This document shows positions 3,806 through 58,012 of a stretch of DNA of 58,226 nt, piece after piece. The notes below the pieces were generated by a model. That model searched no databases. It was not told the DNA's origin and was given only the letters and a program-made list of their open reading frames with translations. Positions within the stretch are counted from its first letter, which is position 1, and every line of letters starts with the position of its first letter. A program made the position numbers and the translations under genes. Source of the stretch: an uncultured Candidatus Saccharibacteria bacterium (GTDB taxonomy: Bacteria > Patescibacteriota > Minisyncoccia > 2-02-FULL-40-12 > IGHO2-12-FULL-4); contig CAZOKW010000002.1 of the NCBI GenBank assembly GCA_964580765.1, positions 1 to 58,226 on the forward strand. The letters are read 5' to 3'.

Positions 3806-4504
3806 ATGTTTTTTAATCGAATTATGGAAAATCTGCTAATTTTCATTCAAAACCACGCGCCGGTTTTAATTGACCACACCTACCGGTTTTTATTTTTGGG
3901 AGGGTTGATCGAGGGAATGAACACGCTGGTTTTGGGGGGATTCATCGCTTCGACCGGGCAGGTTAAATTACATTTACTGATTCCTTTACTGGTCATAGCG
4001 CATACCCTAAATGGTTACGGCTGGTATCTGGTTGGCTATTTGGGAGGAGCCAAAGCGTTGGATAAATGGGGACATAAAAACAAGATCAGTCACCAGGTGA
4101 TAAATAAAATTGAGGACTATTTCAAAAGATATAGCGGAAGAACGATTATGTTTGCCAAGTTCACTTTTTCTCTGGAAATCGCCACCATGATTTTGTGCGG
4201 GTCGCTGAAGTACAACTTGAAAAAGTTTTCCAAATATAATTTTTATGGTTCGGCTGGTTGGGTTTTTATGACCACCTTGGTGGGCTATTTTTTTGGTCAA
4301 AGTTTTAAATTAATTTTTAATGTTCTGAAAAGTTTTACTCTCTTGATGCTTTTTTTGGCCGCGGCGATCATTTTGATTTATATTTTAAAAATTTTGCTTA
4401 AAAAATACTTTGTCAGTTATTTGACCATTCAAGAAAAACTCAAAGAATGGACGGACCGGATCCGCGACGGGTTTGATGATCTGCTGTCTAACGGCAAAGA
4501 TTAG
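3806..4504 (+). CDS. DedA/SNARE-associated family membrane protein
   Basis: 232 aa and multi-TM. Layout and motifs (LIEG...G, GYLGG) look typical of the DedA family. Confidence 0.6.
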   Translation: MFFNRIMENLLIFIQNHAPVLIDHTYRFLFLGGLIEGMNTLVLGGFIASTGQVKLHLLIPLLVIAHTLNGYGWYLVGYLGGAKALDKWGHKNKISHQVINKIEDYFKRYSGRTIMFAKFTFSLEIATMILCGSLKYNLKKFSKYNFYGSAGWVFMTTLVGYFFGQSFKLIFNVLKSFTLLMLFLAAAIILIYILKILLKKYFVSYLTIQEKLKEWTDRIRDGFDDLLSNGKD

Positions 4505-4569: not shown

Positions 4570-5778
4570 ATGAAGAAATTAAGAAAACTTTATTTTATAG
4601 GGCTTTTTGCTTTACTTTTAGCGCCTTTTACGGTTTTTGCCGCTGACGGCACTCGTTATTTAGTAAAATCCAACAGTCAGTTTTGGAAGAAAACTTTCAA
4701 CGCCAGGCATGATTTTAAAGATGGTTTTACGGCTGATCTCAATGATTGGCAGTTTCGTTTTGGTAAAATTTTGGGAGTGAGTATTGAGCCGGTGGGAATT
4801 CTGCAGGTTTTGCCGGAACAAGAAGTCAAGGAAGTGAAAGCGGTCAAGGGTATGGTTAAAACCCGTCTGTTGCCTAGCGACCAGACCCCCTGGGGGATAG
4901 AAAGTATTTATAATGATGTCAATATTGCTAAAACTTCCGGAGGAGACGGAGTAAAAGTGGCTATAGTAGATACGGGTGTAACTGTCGGTCATCCGGATCT
5001 GAAGGCCCGTATTTCAAAATGCAAGGACTTTACTAATTTGCGTTTTCCAGTCGTTAACGGCAAATGCGAAGACAAAAACGGCCATGGCACCCATGTGGCC
5101 GGAGTTATTTTGGCCGATGGCGGGGCGGACGGGTTGGGAATTTATGGGGTAGCTCCAGCTGCTGTTTTATATGCTTTAAAGGCCTGTTCTCTTAACGGAA
5201 CTTGTTATGCTGATGATGTGGCGGCGGCCATTAAAAATGCCGCTGACGATGGAGCAAATATTATTAATTTAAGTTTAGGGTCTGACCGTCCCTCTGTCTT
5301 GATAGACGAAGCGGTAAATTATGCCGTTTCCAAGGGCGTACTGGTGGTGGCCGCGGCCGGCAATGACGGACCTTATCCGGAAAGTATTGATTATCCGGCA
5401 GCTAAAAGCAATGTGGTGGCCATAGGCGCTTTTGATTCTAACTTTAAAATAGCCGATTGGAGCTCTCGCGGAATAAACAGTCAGACCGTCCCGCTGGTGA
5501 TTGAAGAAAAAGATATGGAACTGGCCGCGCCGGGGGTCAATATTGAATCCACTTGGAATAACGGCGGATATGCGGTGTTGTCCGGTACTTCCATGGCTTC
5601 TCCTTTTGTGGCCGGTTTAGTGGCTAAACTTTGGTCTGATTTTTCTTTAGAACCCGATCCGGCTCAAGCGGTCAGAGAATTTTTGCATAAAATCGTGTTT
5701 GATATTGACTTGCCGGGAGAAGACAATACTTCCGGATTTGGTTTTGCCAGAGTGCCGTTGCCAATACCACAACCTTAA
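4570..5778 (+). CDS. secreted subtilisin-like serine protease (peptidase S8)
   Basis: Signal peptide plus the catalytic triad motifs VAIVDTGV (Asp), HGTHVAG (His) and GTSMASPFVAG (Ser). Confidence 0.9.
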   Translation: MKKLRKLYFIGLFALLLAPFTVFAADGTRYLVKSNSQFWKKTFNARHDFKDGFTADLNDWQFRFGKILGVSIEPVGILQVLPEQEVKEVKAVKGMVKTRLLPSDQTPWGIESIYNDVNIAKTSGGDGVKVAIVDTGVTVGHPDLKARISKCKDFTNLRFPVVNGKCEDKNGHGTHVAGVILADGGADGLGIYGVAPAAVLYALKACSLNGTCYADDVAAAIKNAADDGANIINLSLGSDRPSVLIDEAVNYAVSKGVLVVAAAGNDGPYPESIDYPAAKSNVVAIGAFDSNFKIADWSSRGINSQTVPLVIEEKDMELAAPGVNIESTWNNGGYAVLSGTSMASPFVAGLVAKLWSDFSLEPDPAQAVREFLHKIVFDIDLPGEDNTSGFGFARVPLPIPQP

Positions 5779-5796: not shown

Positions 5797-6456
5797 ATGG
5801 TTAACCGCGTTATTAAGCGTTTAGTTATTTCTGATTTTATTTTTAATTTTGCTTTTGGTTTGCTGGGCCCGATTTTCGCTATTTTTATTTTAAAAAATGT
5901 GCCTGGCAGTTCTTTGAAGGTCATTGGTTTATCCACGGCTTTCTATTGGATATCCCGCACTCTCACCACTGTGCCATTGTCCCGCTTTATGGACAAAACA
6001 GATGGAGAACGGGACGAATTCTATTTTTCTCTGTTTGGTTCTTTTCTTATCGCCTCCATTCCGCTTTTTTACCTATTGATCAAAGCGCCCTGGCACTTAT
6101 ATCTTATTCAACTTATCTATGGGATAGGTAACTCTATGGCCGTACCGGCTTGGCGGATTTTATTCACCGACCATATTGATAAAGGGAAAACAGGATATGA
6201 GTGGTCTTTGGAGGATGTGGCCATTGGCATCTCCGTCGGCATCAGCGCTTATCTAGGTTCAATTTTGGCGGAAAAATTCGGTTTTAGCGTGGTGTTAATT
6301 CTTTTGTCTTCTTTAGGTTATGTGGCTACTCTTGTTCTCATTCCTTTATATAAAGATGCCAAAACCTTGGCCCAAATTAAACGGGAAAAGCGTCTGCAAA
6401 TTATCTTAGAAAAACGCAAAAACCCTACTCCATTTAAGATTGATGGAGTGAGGTAA
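5797..6456 (+). CDS. half-size (about 6 TM) MFS-like membrane protein
   Basis: 219 aa and hydrophobic, with an MFS-like loop 'SRFMDKTDGERDE'. Weak assignment. Confidence 0.4.
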   Translation: MVNRVIKRLVISDFIFNFAFGLLGPIFAIFILKNVPGSSLKVIGLSTAFYWISRTLTTVPLSRFMDKTDGERDEFYFSLFGSFLIASIPLFYLLIKAPWHLYLIQLIYGIGNSMAVPAWRILFTDHIDKGKTGYEWSLEDVAIGISVGISAYLGSILAEKFGFSVVLILLSSLGYVATLVLIPLYKDAKTLAQIKREKRLQIILEKRKNPTPFKIDGVR

Positions 6457-55659: not shown

Positions 55660-56709
55660 ATGGATAATAAAAAACTTCGTATTGCTATAAACGGATTTGG
55701 CCGGATCGGCCGGATATTTTTCAGGCAGGCCTTTGCTTCGCCCTCCGAAGCTTCAGCGAAGGAGGGAACTCCGGAAATTGAGGTGGTGGCCATCAATGAT
55801 CTCGGCTCGGCCGAAAATTTAGCATACTTGCTGAAATACGACACGGTTTATGGCCAGTTTGATAAAACCGTAGAAAGCAAGGATAAAGCTATGGTGGTGG
55901 ACGGCCGGGAAATACAAGTCCTCCAGGAAACCGAACCAGTCAAATTACCCTGGAAAAAAATGGAAATAGATGTAGTCGTTGAATCTACCGGAGTATTTGA
56001 AACAAAAGAAAAAGCTAGCGGACACTTGGAAGCGGGCGCTAAGCGAGTAGTAATCACTGCTCCCGCCAAAGACGAAGTTACCCCGACGGCCACTCCCAAT
56101 GTGGGTATGCAAACCTTGGCCGATGACTTGGTTACCTCCAACGCTTCTTGCACTACCAACGCTGTCAATCCGGTCGCCGCTGTTATGCAGAACAGCGTGG
56201 GAGTTAGAAAAGCTCTGTTGGTTACCGTTCACGGCTACACCGCTACGCAAGGTCTGGTAGACGGCCCGGACAAAAAAGGTGACTTCCGCCGGGCTCGCGC
56301 CGCCGCCCAAAATATTGTGCCCTCTACCACCGGAGCGGCCGAAGCCACTACCAAAGTGCTCACCGAACTTAAAAATAAATTTGATGGCATAGCCATTCGC
56401 GTACCGGTTATTTCCGGCTCGCTAATTGACTTTACTTTTCTGGCCGGACGGCCCACTTCTGTCAACGAGATAAATGAGATTTTTAAAAAAGCCGCTCAAG
56501 CCAAAGAATGGGAGGGGATTTTGACCGTTACCGAAGAACCGATTGTTTCCAGCGACATTCTCGGTAATCCCCACGGAGCCATTGTAGACCTTGCCCTAAC
56601 CAAAGTGGTGGATAACGATTTAGTAAAAGTTTTTGCCTGGTATGATAATGAGTGGGGTTATGGCGCCATGCTTCTCAAACATGTCTTGGCAGTAGGACAA
56701 CTATTGTAA
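55660..56709 (+). CDS. gap: glyceraldehyde-3-phosphate dehydrogenase, with an in-frame hairpin insert after the NAD-binding loop
   Basis: 'INGFGRIGR', 'SNASCTTN' active site and 'WYDNEWGY'. Confidence 0.95.
   Translation: MDNKKLRIAINGFGRIGRIFFRQAFASPSEASAKEGTPEIEVVAINDLGSAENLAYLLKYDTVYGQFDKTVESKDKAMVVDGREIQVLQETEPVKLPWKKMEIDVVVESTGVFETKEKASGHLEAGAKRVVITAPAKDEVTPTATPNVGMQTLADDLVTSNASCTTNAVNPVAAVMQNSVGVRKALLVTVHGYTATQGLVDGPDKKGDFRRARAAAQNIVPSTTGAAEATTKVLTELKNKFDGIAIRVPVISGSLIDFTFLAGRPTSVNEINEIFKKAAQAKEWEGILTVTEEPIVSSDILGNPHGAIVDLALTKVVDNDLVKVFAWYDNEWGYGAMLLKHVLAVGQLL
55747..55778. repeat. Family-6 GC hairpin insert, in-frame in gap
   Basis: CCCTCC-GAAGCTTC-AGCGAA-GGAGGG, encoding 'ASPSEASAKEG'. 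Confidence 0.7.
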
Positions 56710-56740
56710 GTTTAGAGTTGTGAGGGAAAAAATAAAAAAA

Positions 56741-56765
56741 GCGGTTGAATAAACCGCTTTTTTTA
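56741..56765 (+). terminator. rho-independent terminator after gap
   Basis: GCGGTT-GAATA-AACCGC plus TTTTTTTT. Confidence 0.8.
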
Positions 56766-56776
56766 TTACCAAAATG

Positions 56777-56785
56777 TGGTATAAT
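56777..56785 (+). promoter_or_regulatory. extended -10 element TGgTATAAT upstream of the tRNA-Pro locus
   Basis: Same TGnTAnAAT form as upstream of tRNA-Arg (58082-58090), lysS, holB, gap and mnmA. Confidence 0.5.
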
Positions 56786-56850
56786 AAGCGAAAGTCGCCT
56801 CTGCAACCTGACGGGTTTCACCCGCTGAAGGTCGCTACGGCGACCGAAAG

Positions 56851-57057
56851 CGGGCTGGCGTATGATGGTGGTACGACTGCTTTGGGGTTGGGAAAAATTG
56901 TCGGGGCGGAGCGTAGTATACCGGTAGTACACCTGCTTTGGGAGCAGATAGACCGAGTTCGATTCTCGGCGCTCCGACAATTTTTCTCAACGGGAATGCT
57001 GGGGGCATTCCCGGGCGCGAAGCGAGTTAGACTGGGTTCGATTCCCAGCAGCCCGAC
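56851..57057 (+). pseudogene. split/decayed tRNA-Pro-like gene interrupted in its anticodon loop by a 133-nt insert
   Basis: The 5' half is CGGGCTG-GC-GTAT-GATGGTG-GTAC-G-ACTGC-TTTGGGG (56851-56887). The 3' half is GCGAGT-TAGA-CTGGG-TTCGATT-CCCAG-CAGCCCG-A (57021-57057). The acceptor strands are perfectly complementary, and the anticodon stem needs a bulge. Confidence 0.6.
56907..56977 (+). tRNA. tRNA-Pro (UGG), CCA not encoded
   Basis: Hand-folded: CGGAGCG-TA-GTAT-ACCGGTA-GTAC-A-CCTGC-TTTGGGA-GCAGA-TAGA-CCGAG-TTCGATT-CTCGG-CGCTCCG-A. Has C1-G72 and A73 as in bacterial tRNA-Pro. There is one C.A mismatch at 27:43. Confidence 0.85.
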
Positions 57058-57211
57058 AAGCGAAGCGCAGGCGGGATGCGCAGTTGAGTTGCGAAGGCGA
57101 CGAAATGCCAAAGCCAGTAGGCGTGGTGCCCGACAAGCGAAGCGCAGGCGGGATGCGCAGTTGAGTCGCGAAGGCGACGAAATGCCAAAGCCAGTAGGCG
57201 TGGTGCCCGAC
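57052..57211 (+). repeat. two 77-bp tandem units plus a 6-bp third start (CCCGAC)
   Basis: 57052-57128 and 57129-57205 differ at one position (57090 T vs 57167 C). Each unit begins with the 3' end of the tRNA-like acceptor. Confidence 0.9.
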
Positions 57212-57215
57212 CAGA

Positions 57216-57242
57216 ATACAAAAGGGCCACCTGGTGGCCCCC
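57216..57242 (-). terminator. rho-independent terminator of the minus-strand GDPD gene
   Basis: GGGCCACC/GGTGGCCC hairpin followed, on the minus strand, by TTTTGTATT. Confidence 0.7.
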
Positions 57243-57253
57243 TGAAGGGAATA

Positions 57254-58012
57254 CTAAACGGAAACGGACTGCGAAGCCGATTTTTGCCCGAGACCCATCC
57301 AAGATAGCGCTTCGGCTTTGTCGGTAAACACACCGTCCACTCCCAGCGCGAGACAGTTGAACATGCTCTCCCGGTCATTGACCAGATACACCCTCACGGC
57401 AAAGCCGTGATGATATTTCAGATAGTCAACCAGTTCTCTGGTCGTTTTTCGACACGGAAAATGAATCCCTTCCACGCCAAAGCGTTTGAAACAATTCAAT
57501 TTTTTCCGGTCAACAGAGTGGAGCGGAAACTGCAAGTTGTCGGTCAGCCATGCCATTTCCATTTGCGGAAATTCTTTCTTCACCACAATCAGCTCGCTCT
57601 CCTCAAAAGAGGAAACGATAAGATTTTTCAGACCAGTCACTTCTTTCAAAAGATTGGCTAATATCTTGCCAGACCCTTTTTCTTTCAGTTCAACATTGAT
57701 CCCAATATGAGGCAGGAAATCATCCAACACCAGTTTTAGAGAGGGGATGCTCTGACTCCGCACAAAATGCATCGTTCCTTCAGTGCAAATTCCATTAGCC
57801 ACCAGGTTTTCAAAAAGATGTTCGCGGAATTTTATTCGCCGACCAGCATGATTAATCTCCGGATCGTGGTGAACGACTAGGTGGCCATCTTTGGTCAGAC
57901 GAGCATCCAGTTCCAGCATAGAAAAACCCATATTTACCGCCCGAGTGAAGGCGGTGAGAGTGTTTTCTTCAAATTTCCCTTGGTGAGCTCCGCGATGAGC
58001 GATAATCTGCAT
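57254..58012 (-). CDS. glycerophosphodiester phosphodiesterase (GDPD family)
   Basis: 'IIAHRGA', 'ELDARLTKDGHLVVHHD' and 'INVELK'. Confidence 0.85.
   Translation of the reverse strand: MQIIAHRGAHQGKFEENTLTAFTRAVNMGFSMLELDARLTKDGHLVVHHDPEINHAGRRIKFREHLFENLVANGICTEGTMHFVRSQSIPSLKLVLDDFLPHIGINVELKEKGSGKILANLLKEVTGLKNLIVSSFEESELIVVKKEFPQMEMAWLTDNLQFPLHSVDRKKLNCFKRFGVEGIHFPCRKTTRELVDYLKYHHGFAVRVYLVNDRESMFNCLALGVDGVFTDKAEALSWMGLGQKSASQSVSV

Follow-up and report, generated by a model that had tools for sequence, protein, structure and literature searches.

A complete tRNA-Pro gene nested in the anticodon loop of a second tRNA-Pro gene in an uncultured member of the Patescibacteria

To our knowledge, interrupted tRNA genes have been met in bacteria only as hosts of group I introns or as targets of integrases. 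Group I introns are about 200 nt long or more. The canonical site of the protein-spliced tRNA introns of Archaea and Eukarya lies between positions 37 and 38, where two 3-nt bulges with a 4-bp helix between them (the bulge-helix-bulge motif) mark the exon-intron junctions, and in the Thermoproteales such introns are mobile among tRNA genes. Unusual insertions are already known in the rRNA genes of the candidate phyla radiation (CPR). Here we analyze a 58,226-nt stretch of DNA (contig CAZOKW010000002.1) from an uncultured bacterium placed in the Patescibacteria (CPR); this whole stretch, which we call the window, is the part of the source genome that was covered. In it a tRNA-Pro(UGG) gene is split in its anticodon loop by an insert that carries another, complete tRNA-Pro(UGG) held between the two arms of a helix, the clamp. 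We refer to the arrangement as a nest, to its two genes as the outer and the inner tRNA, and to the separated outer halves as the shell. Our literature searches turned up no description of nested bacterial tRNA genes, and the nearest cases were the split and intron-bearing tRNAs of Archaea and the rRNA introns of the CPR; a preliminary description of the stretch, made from its letters, had likewise held the arrangement to be undescribed.

Nested tRNA-Pro genes in the window

ARAGORN called the inner tRNA-Pro(UGG) at 56907-56978, and the Rfam tRNA model (RF00005) scored positions 56907-56977 at 56.8 bits against a gathering score of 29. Read from the same positions, the inner tRNA has C1:G72, A73, G35, G36 and G37, which are the determinants of tRNA-Pro for ProRS and TrmD; it contains one C27-A43 mismatch, flagged by Infernal, and its CCA is not encoded. 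Because the trailer is the reverse complement of the leader, the two form the clamp helix, which has 14 bp, one G-U among them, while a further 8 bp (56901-56908 with 56970-56977) compete with the inner acceptor stem.

The outer halves retain a perfect 7-bp acceptor stem (CGGGCUG/CAGCCCG), a D arm and a T arm, and removal of the insert (TTTGGG^A) gives back an anticodon loop of 7 nt. An extra G at 57024 bulges out of the outer anticodon stem. When the halves were joined (56887-57020 removed), ARAGORN in default mode found no gene, and tRNA-Pro(UGG) was called only once G57024 was deleted. The intron mode of ARAGORN, which the preliminary description had proposed as a check, did not find the outer gene. 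A search with Rfam covariance models, proposed there as well, covered positions 56650-57350 at E values up to 10: the only tRNA match was the inner one, the outer halves went unscored, and no group I intron, ribozyme, tmRNA or large structured RNA was detected. The tmRNA model reached 12.5 bits against a threshold of 47, all other families likewise stayed far from theirs, ARAGORN reported no tmRNA, and the sub-threshold Rfam matches to small RNAs at the locus stem from the terminator.

The minimum-free-energy fold of positions 56790-57060 has an energy of -126.2 kcal/mol (z = -6.1), and none of 200 shuffled sequences was as stable. This fold shows the nesting: it contains the outer acceptor stem (7 bp) with the D and T arms, a long arm in which the outer anticodon stem continues into a leader/trailer helix of 14-22 bp, the arms of the inner cloverleaf and the extra hairpin of the insert. 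In the outer acceptor, D and T stems no pair probability is below 0.95. At the end of the insert, CGAAGC (57018-57023) pairs with GCTTTG (56879-56884) of the outer gene, which lengthens the outer anticodon stem. Together, the ARAGORN call, the Rfam score and the fold bear out the preliminary description of an intact, helix-clamped tRNA-Pro in the anticodon loop of a second one, including the perfect complementarity of the outer acceptor strands. The promoter, leader hairpins, outer halves, inner tRNA and extra hairpin that it listed all lie where it had put them (Table 1); its figures of 9-13 bp for the flanking helix and 133 nt for the insert need correction to 14 bp plus the competing 8 bp and to 134 nt, respectively.

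A chimera made during metagenome assembly is one conceivable source of such a locus. Two assemblies of the same organism, L082 (NCBI VMFO01000001.1) and L083 (Logan), give contigs that end about 46 nt past the GAPDH stop, just before the nest, which points either to a locus that is difficult to assemble or to variation within the population. However, an independent assembly, L081 (ENA ERZ27284378), contains the identical nest, with a single difference in 801 nt, at 57185. Moreover, neither the complementarity of the clamp nor the structure z-score is typical of chimeras, and the same architecture occurs with unrelated sequences in other projects. We consider a chimera extremely unlikely and conclude from these assemblies that the nest is not an artefact.

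Relatives were found through matches to the GAPDH encoded beside the nest in an index of 5.8 billion proteins, where the closest GAPDH proteins are 79-82% identical; the searched collections held no relative closer than 82%. The gene order tRNA-Gly (reverse strand), GAPDH, tRNA-Pro(UGG) is common to the window and the contigs of these relatives (L085-L102), in several of which GDPD (reverse strand) and tRNA-Arg(UCU) come next. At the equivalent site every relative examined has an intact tRNA-Pro with the acceptor strand CGGGCTG, which in L085-L088 and L100-L102 reads CGGGCTGGCGTATGA(G/T)GGTGGTACGACT(G/T)GTTTGGGACCAGTTAGACTGGGTTCGACTCCCAGCAGCCCGA. From those genes the joined outer halves differ by one D-loop base, one T-loop base, a change of the 31:39 pair from G:C to C:G, and the extra G57024. 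Altogether this amounts to about 4-5 positions plus the inserted G, too few for the resemblance to be due to chance. The outer 5' part is the same as intact L102 at 34 of 36 positions, and the 3' part, from AGTTAGA on, is the same as L085/L102 at 32 of 33. The terminator-plus-promoter block upstream is conserved in the window, L100 and L129: the promoter ortholog of L129 is CCAAAATGTGTTATAAT, and L100 has a matching terminator and A-rich block, then TGGTAAAGT, at the equivalent place. L129 is the nearest GAPDH relative, and its contig stops just past the promoter. Ten of 80 GAPDH relatives from GTDB (including L001-L005; 46-70% identity) were scanned as well, and these had no tRNA in the GAPDH locus.

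Given the synteny, the near-identical intact tRNA-Pro and the orthologous terminator-plus-promoter block, the comparison indicates that the outer gene is the ancestral resident gene and that the 134 nt were inserted after G37 and before A38. The outer tRNA-Pro had been called decayed, and relatives with unrelated sequence at these positions would have told against the arrangement; instead, the relatives have a near-identical intact tRNA-Pro at the same place, and the outer gene is hardly decayed, a resident gene with few substitutions and a single disabling extra base.

The inner tRNA is about 66% identical to the resident tRNA-Pro, by a hand count from the alignment and not as a computed figure. 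A metagenome scan with the D-arm pattern of the inner tRNA gave 15 loci, and seven of these (L105, L107, L109, L110, L113, L116 and L117) carry stand-alone tRNA-Pro(UGG or CGG) genes that share this acceptor stem and lack the leader/trailer helix. By these alignments the inner tRNA is from another tRNA-Pro family than the resident gene.

Table 1. Features of the nested locus and its neighbours, in window coordinates
Feature	Position	Strand	Description
GAPDH gene	55660-56709	+	Upstream neighbour of the nested locus
Hairpin terminator after GAPDH	56731-56767		AAAAAAAGCGG..CCGCTTTTTTT; usable in either strand direction
Extended -10 element	56777-56785	+	TGgTATAAT; promoter of the resident tRNA-Pro, as read from the sequence
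GC-rich leader with hairpins	56786-56850	+	65 nt
Outer tRNA-Pro(UGG), 5' part	56851-56886	+	tRNA positions 1-37; acceptor strand, D arm, anticodon-stem strand, loop TTTGGG
Insert splitting the outer tRNA-Pro	56887-57020		134 nt
Clamp, left arm	56887-56900	+	GTTGGGAAAAATTG
Decoy	56901-56908	+	TCGGGGCG; shares its last 2 nt with the start of the inner tRNA; able to pair with the 3' acceptor strand of that tRNA
Inner complete tRNA-Pro(UGG)	56907-56977	+	CGGAGCG family (acceptor CGGAGCG/CGCTCCG)
Clamp, right arm	56978-56991	+	CAATTTTTCTCAAC; reverse complement of the left arm
Extra hairpin in the insert	56992-57012	+	GGGAATGC(T)-GGG-(G)GCATTCCC
Insert tail	57013-57020	+	GGGCGCGA
Outer tRNA-Pro, 3' part	57021-57057	+	tRNA positions 38-73 plus one base
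77-nt unit, 2.1 copies	57051-57211	+	Every unit opens with GCCCGAC, the last bases of the outer tRNA
Terminator of the GDPD gene	57221-57243	-	End of the non-coding locus
GDPD gene	57254-58012	-	Convergent downstream neighbour

Recurrence in other contigs

Two other uncultured bacteria, represented by contigs L114 and L103 from the same 15 loci, have a clamped tRNA-Pro within the anticodon loop of another tRNA-Pro. In L114 the outer gene is a tRNA-Pro(UGG) of the CGGAGCG type, split CTTG^GGT, with a similar stand-alone family member in L117. Its 114-nt insert contains a tRNA-Pro(CGG) of the CGGGGCA type with the clamp CCCGCCAAAATTTTT/AAAAATTTAGGCGGG, and the outer halves, once joined, are perfect and called tRNA-Pro(UGG). 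In L103 the loop (TTC^GGGT) of a tRNA-Pro(CGG) houses a CGGAGCG-type tRNA-Pro(CGG) whose clamp has 17 bp. The 3' half of this outer gene matches the intact tRNA-Pro(CGG) of L118, a NUDIX-syntenic relative, without a difference; L119 likewise carries an intact gene at this site. The outer gene of L103 has four further hairpin insertions (positions 7/8-10, D-loop, 25/26 and 43/44) and has lost G18 and C31, and its joined halves are not called a tRNA. Intact orthologs of the outer gene are thereby established for the window and L103.

A complete clamped tRNA with an orphan 5' acceptor strand upstream and, downstream, a T arm with the complementary 3' strand is found in the window, L103 and L114. 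A blind scan of 97 tRNAs in 727 kb, which looked for an orphan T arm together with a 3' acceptor strand that has its complement upstream, brought up exactly these three nests. At -21 to -39 kcal/mol, where the median is -8.5, their leader/trailer duplexes lie at the extreme of the energy distribution. In every nest the trailer opens with a short linker and continues as the reverse complement of the leader, and the GC-rich outer end of the clamp resembles the NGGG anticodon region and its complement; the clamp sequences themselves are unrelated from nest to nest. Inner and outer tRNAs share their amino-acid identity in all cases, and their anticodons agree in the window and L103 but not in L114. 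Removal of the insert gives a 7-nt loop in all three nests, which in L103 is exactly the loop of the relative.

The genes beside the two additional nests, read by eye from open reading frame (ORF) translations, seem to encode NUDIX, RRM and RNase HII proteins in L103, and a CCA-adding enzyme and a membrane protein in L114; in this reading, made with no domain search, no neighbouring gene, and so no recombinase- or nuclease-like one, was common to the nests. About 20 further contigs carry genes for the CCA-adding enzyme that are at least 90% identical to the one of L114. A related arrangement in L104/L106 has a clamped tRNA-Gly(CCC) in a shell that lacks an outer T arm; the acceptor strands of this shell are GCGGGAT/ATCCCGC, and it contains partial repeats of its 5' end. 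L106 looks like a tRNA-Gly in a tRNA-Gly-like shell. On the reverse strand of L112, a tRNA-Leu(UAG) at oriented positions 58-138 has a 10-bp leader/trailer clamp (GACGCC../..GGCGTC), with an orphan T-arm-like GGGTTCGAATCC about 70 nt downstream; this may be another nest, cut by the contig end.

These comparisons bear on whether any foreign cassette has to be assumed at all. The locus could instead be the scar of a local rearrangement among tRNA-Pro copies, by tandem duplication, slippage, template switching at quasi-palindromes and deletions. Partial repeats of tRNA ends abound, with GCCCGAC present three times at 77-nt spacing; the window leader contains the acceptor-like CGGGT/ACCCG, and the leader module of L103 contains CCCCG(C)ACCAGA, which is like its own 3' end plus trailer. 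There are also short direct repeats at the junctions (TTTGGG/GTTGGG and GCGA/AGCGA), and the DNA 3' of tRNA-Pro varies among the relatives. Nevertheless, the inner gene belongs to a different tRNA-Pro family (the hand-counted identity given above) that is native elsewhere, a single tRNA-Pro occupies the locus in the relatives examined, and deletions are not expected to restore the loop exactly in three nests. We therefore hold such a scar to be quite improbable, and the restored loop length, exact in L103, also speaks against the decayed tandem array that the preliminary description had offered as its second possibility.

Relic shell, scaffold or intron

The explanation we favour, to which we give a probability of about 0.55, is an in-place replacement of the tRNA gene by a clamped tRNA cassette, the old halves persisting as a relic shell that still folds. 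This was the first possibility raised in the preliminary description, a tRNA-carrying hairpin element inserted into and replacing an older tRNA-Pro, and the synteny, the clean insert and the disabling G make it the best fit of those raised there. The window retains the resident promoter, and from this extended -10 element the whole unit would be transcribed as one RNA. In that RNA the outer acceptor, D and T stems would still pair, and pairing of the insert end with the outer anticodon loop would produce a long arm tipped by the inner cloverleaf. The inner tRNA would be the working gene, its 5' end freed by RNase P and its 3' end by RNase Z or exonucleases, and CCA would be added after processing since none is encoded. 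The clamp would keep the inner cloverleaf and the outer halves apart, and RNase III may cut it. Owing to the insert and to the bulge at G57024, the outer gene would no longer yield a normal tRNA, and its halves would make up a young shell; the host presumably tolerates the insertion because the insert supplies a tRNA of the same amino-acid identity. The process is a recurring one, since the same event occurred independently in other tRNA-Pro genes of the Patescibacteria, and with its perfect outer gene in L114, one extra base in the window and a broken outer gene in L103, the set forms an apparent age series. More speculatively, the leader/trailer symmetry may come from snap-back template switching nucleated at the acceptor stem, which would also account for every clamp being unique.

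Several observations weigh against a replacement that leaves a neutral relic. No transposase or insertion mechanism was found at the nest. Four-fold degenerate sites approach saturation (43-49% identical) when the window is compared with its relatives or L103 with L118, and the outer pieces are still about 93-97% identical to their intact orthologs, so the insertions must be very recent or the shells constrained. All five insertions of L103 fall in single-stranded positions of the cloverleaf. In the one strain pair available, L104/L106, the shell differs at 4 of 102 positions (3.9%) against about 25% at four-fold sites, and all four changes fall within a single hairpin (a compensatory pair, a change that preserves a wobble and a disruptive one), a pattern that suggests either selection on the shell or a recent recombination tract. 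A simple functional replacement also sits badly with L114, where the inner tRNA reads CGG and the outer one read UGG. Finally, the energy model favours by 8.8 kcal/mol a precursor in which the leader decoy (UCGGGGCG) displaces the true 5' strand from its 3' partner in the inner acceptor stem; the inner tRNA may thus not be easily processed.

Much of this would be expected if the shell were a selected, tRNA-shaped scaffold, part of a composite precursor that steers the folding, stability or timed release of the inner tRNA, or that has a role of its own (for example, as a substrate of RNase P, the CCA-adding enzyme or ProRS). The conservation of the outer pieces in genomes whose synonymous sites are saturated and the low divergence of the L104/L106 shell, with its compensatory and wobble-preserving changes, point this way, and in L103 the cloverleaf helices survive because the insertions all lie in loops or junctions. 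The decoy pairing in the window could then serve as a lock, and the leader modules of the window and L103 are similarly built (see below). On the other hand, relatives of 80-85% protein identity live without the nest, and the shells take very unlike forms, with no outer T arm in L106 and no G18 or C31 in L103. A recent insertion or a recombination tract could equally give low divergence, for which the comparison covers the single pair. We judge a selected scaffold unlikely, yet plausible enough to be kept.

A further alternative, put forward as an intron-like arrangement in the preliminary description, is that the insert represents a novel type of tRNA intron in bacteria: the embedded tRNA would be excised, perhaps by RNase P and RNase Z with trimming of the clamp, and the exons religated, so that each transcript yields two tRNAs. 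The break of the window lies at 37/38, the classical intron site, excision gives a 7-nt anticodon loop in all three nests, and the insert end pairs with the anticodon loop as in spliced pre-tRNAs. Moreover, the outer gene of L114 is a perfect tRNA-Pro(UGG) after excision, for which its inner CGG tRNA is no substitute. However, bulge-helix-bulge motifs were not seen in the predicted structures of the window, L114 or L103; the predicted exon-insert junctions are continuous helices with bulges of 1-2 nt, and that of the window is ACU/AGU, a 1-nt bulge and then an uninterrupted helix of 6 bp. No group I intron or other ribozyme family was detected, and Rfam searches of L103, L106 and L114 returned nothing except tRNA. 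The outer gene of the window retains its bulged extra G, that of L103 is not a tRNA after excision, and we know of no bacterial enzyme for precise removal of the clamp. An intron is accordingly a distinctly doubtful reading, and apart from the perfect outer gene of L114 the results gave the earlier suggestion no support. It is retained, along with the selected scaffold, because of the decoy pairing, the low divergence of the shells, the insertion sites of L103 and the anticodons of L114.

More broadly, and as a tentative proposal only, the Patescibacteria may hold an unrecognised class of tRNA-in-tRNA elements, in which clamped cassettes enter the loops of tRNA genes for the same amino acid by non-autonomous mobility or structure-guided copying, with shells that are selected or even spliced and a composite RNA with its own part in processing or regulation. 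The chance that the nests stand for a new class of tRNA cassette, or of composite RNA, in the CPR is substantial. In these nests a bacterial tRNA gene has been broken by a whole other tRNA, at least three independent times, and each time the two genes belonged to one amino-acid family. With a relic shell, as in the replacement that we favour, this would be a new route of tRNA gene turnover, a horizontal replacement in place, which is tolerated because the incoming gene supplies the very function that its arrival abolishes. A selected or spliced shell would represent a new RNA processing architecture in the CPR. The nests are also an annotation trap, as the outer genes are invisible to tRNA finders, and they supply a search pattern for genome-wide surveys.

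Flanking DNA and comparison with known systems

The resident promoter has no -35 element, and a simple -35/-10 scan therefore misses it. Where the relatives have an AT-rich leader of roughly 20 nt, the window has a GC-rich module in its stead, with a hairpin CGGGT-TTC-ACCCG at 56812-56824 and a second one, GGTCGC-TACG-GCGACC, enclosed by CCCGC..GCGGG. This module permits alternative pairings that overlap the outer acceptor strand. A similar module lies upstream of the outer tRNA of L103 (reverse strand, oriented coordinates 5706-5749), and the two follow the same plan: an acceptor-like strand, 3 nt, its complement, 5 nt, a UNCG-capped hairpin, 4-5 nt and the 5' end of the tRNA. In L129 the leader after the conserved promoter (1716-1740) is a TCATAAT repeat in four copies, at which the contig ends.

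Downstream of the nest, the 77-nt repeat has the appearance of a 70-nt insertion that duplicated 7 nt at the tRNA end and was itself then duplicated in tandem. Its units have no similarity to the structured DNA found 3' of tRNA-Pro in the relatives, and the single-nucleotide difference between the two assemblies falls in this region. The sequence CCAGAATAC occurs only after the last copy and resembles the native 3' end and trailer of L103 (CCCCGACCAGAAAAT); the trailers of other relatives differ. The 9-mer (A/C)GCGAAGCG is exact at 57059-57067 and 57136-57144, nowhere else in the window, and with one mismatch (CGCGAAGCG) at 57016-57024, so that its sites mark the 3' junction of the insert and the start of every 77-nt unit. 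GCGAAGC is the sequence of the classic, very stable mini-hairpin.

The contigs of the relatives suggest that the 3' side of the resident tRNA-Pro is a hot spot for variable DNA. L089, L090 and L097-L099 have GAPDH genes identical or nearly identical to that of L091 and diverge from it totally right past the 3' end of tRNA-Pro (..CAGCCCGAC); L091 has a second CCGACCAA about 60 nt downstream, and L097 and L099 differ by an insertion or deletion of about 130 nt in a GC-rich structured stretch. That the end of L089 (..GGCGCGAAGC) runs on into an orphan 3' half, as an att-like site, was considered and ruled out by L097. A conserved element of about 105 nt lies 3' of the intact tRNA-Pro in L095 (about 4308-4411) and, in the opposite orientation, in L086 (about 5880-5990). 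One of its hairpins varies by compensatory changes, it has no Rfam match, and it is adjacent to NYN and small resolvase genes in L095 and preceded by a large serine recombinase in L086; it may be an invertible or mobile structured element. L086 also has a match to the LOOT RNA (RF03000) on the reverse strand at 524-640, with 73.5 bits against a gathering score of 46.4.

No integrase, att or loop duplication or target-site duplication was found at the nest, where the 7-nt GCCCGAC repeats are part of the separate 77-nt units, and the insert is non-coding; a spurious ORF of 177 aa across the locus had no homolog among the 5.8 billion proteins. Scans of viral contigs returned nothing for the inner tRNA, and chance or coding-repeat matches only for the outer 5' half and for a nest signature of two D arms. 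By blastn, a phage collection gave generic tRNA similarity only, and a metagenome scan for copies of the outer 5' half that do not continue into A38 gave no match. Cores like those of integron attC sites (GTTRRRY / RYYYAAC) were considered and rejected, as their order and complementarity do not fit.

Among the known systems, the protein-spliced introns of Archaea and Eukarya resemble the nest in their anticodon-loop site (37/38 in the window), in the pairing of the insert end with anticodon-loop bases, in the 7-nt loop that excision would yield and, in the case of L103, in the presence of several insertions in one tRNA. They differ in that the host of the nest is bacterial, no bulge-helix-bulge is predicted, the insert is a whole tRNA and the outer gene of the window has a disabling base; we know of no splicing endonuclease in nest-carrying organisms. 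The group I introns of bacterial tRNA-Leu(UAA), tRNA-fMet, tRNA-Arg and tRNA-Ile also interrupt the anticodon loop, whereas the 134-nt insert is too short for one, has no detected core and is for more than half of its length (71 nt) a tRNA. Integrase-borne islands and prophages target tRNA genes, including the anticodon loop, and the incoming DNA keeps a working tRNA; unlike them, the nest has no integrase or att duplication, measures only 134 nt, brings a whole independent tRNA and retains both old halves. In the split and permuted tRNA genes of Nanoarchaeum equitans, Caldivirga (tri-split) and Cyanidioschyzon merolae the halves are likewise separated, with a GC-rich helix by the break, but there the archaeal or eukaryal splicing machinery joins the halves, while those of the nest flank another tRNA and nothing indicates that they are joined. 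The processing stalks of rRNA, leader/trailer helices cut by RNase III, similarly bracket a mature RNA by a long helix within a structured precursor; they are known for rRNA and not for a tRNA in a tRNA, and cleavage of the nest by RNase III would be an extension of that model. The arrangement is real, recurrent and apparently undescribed, and is best filed as a novel form of disrupted or targeted tRNA gene.

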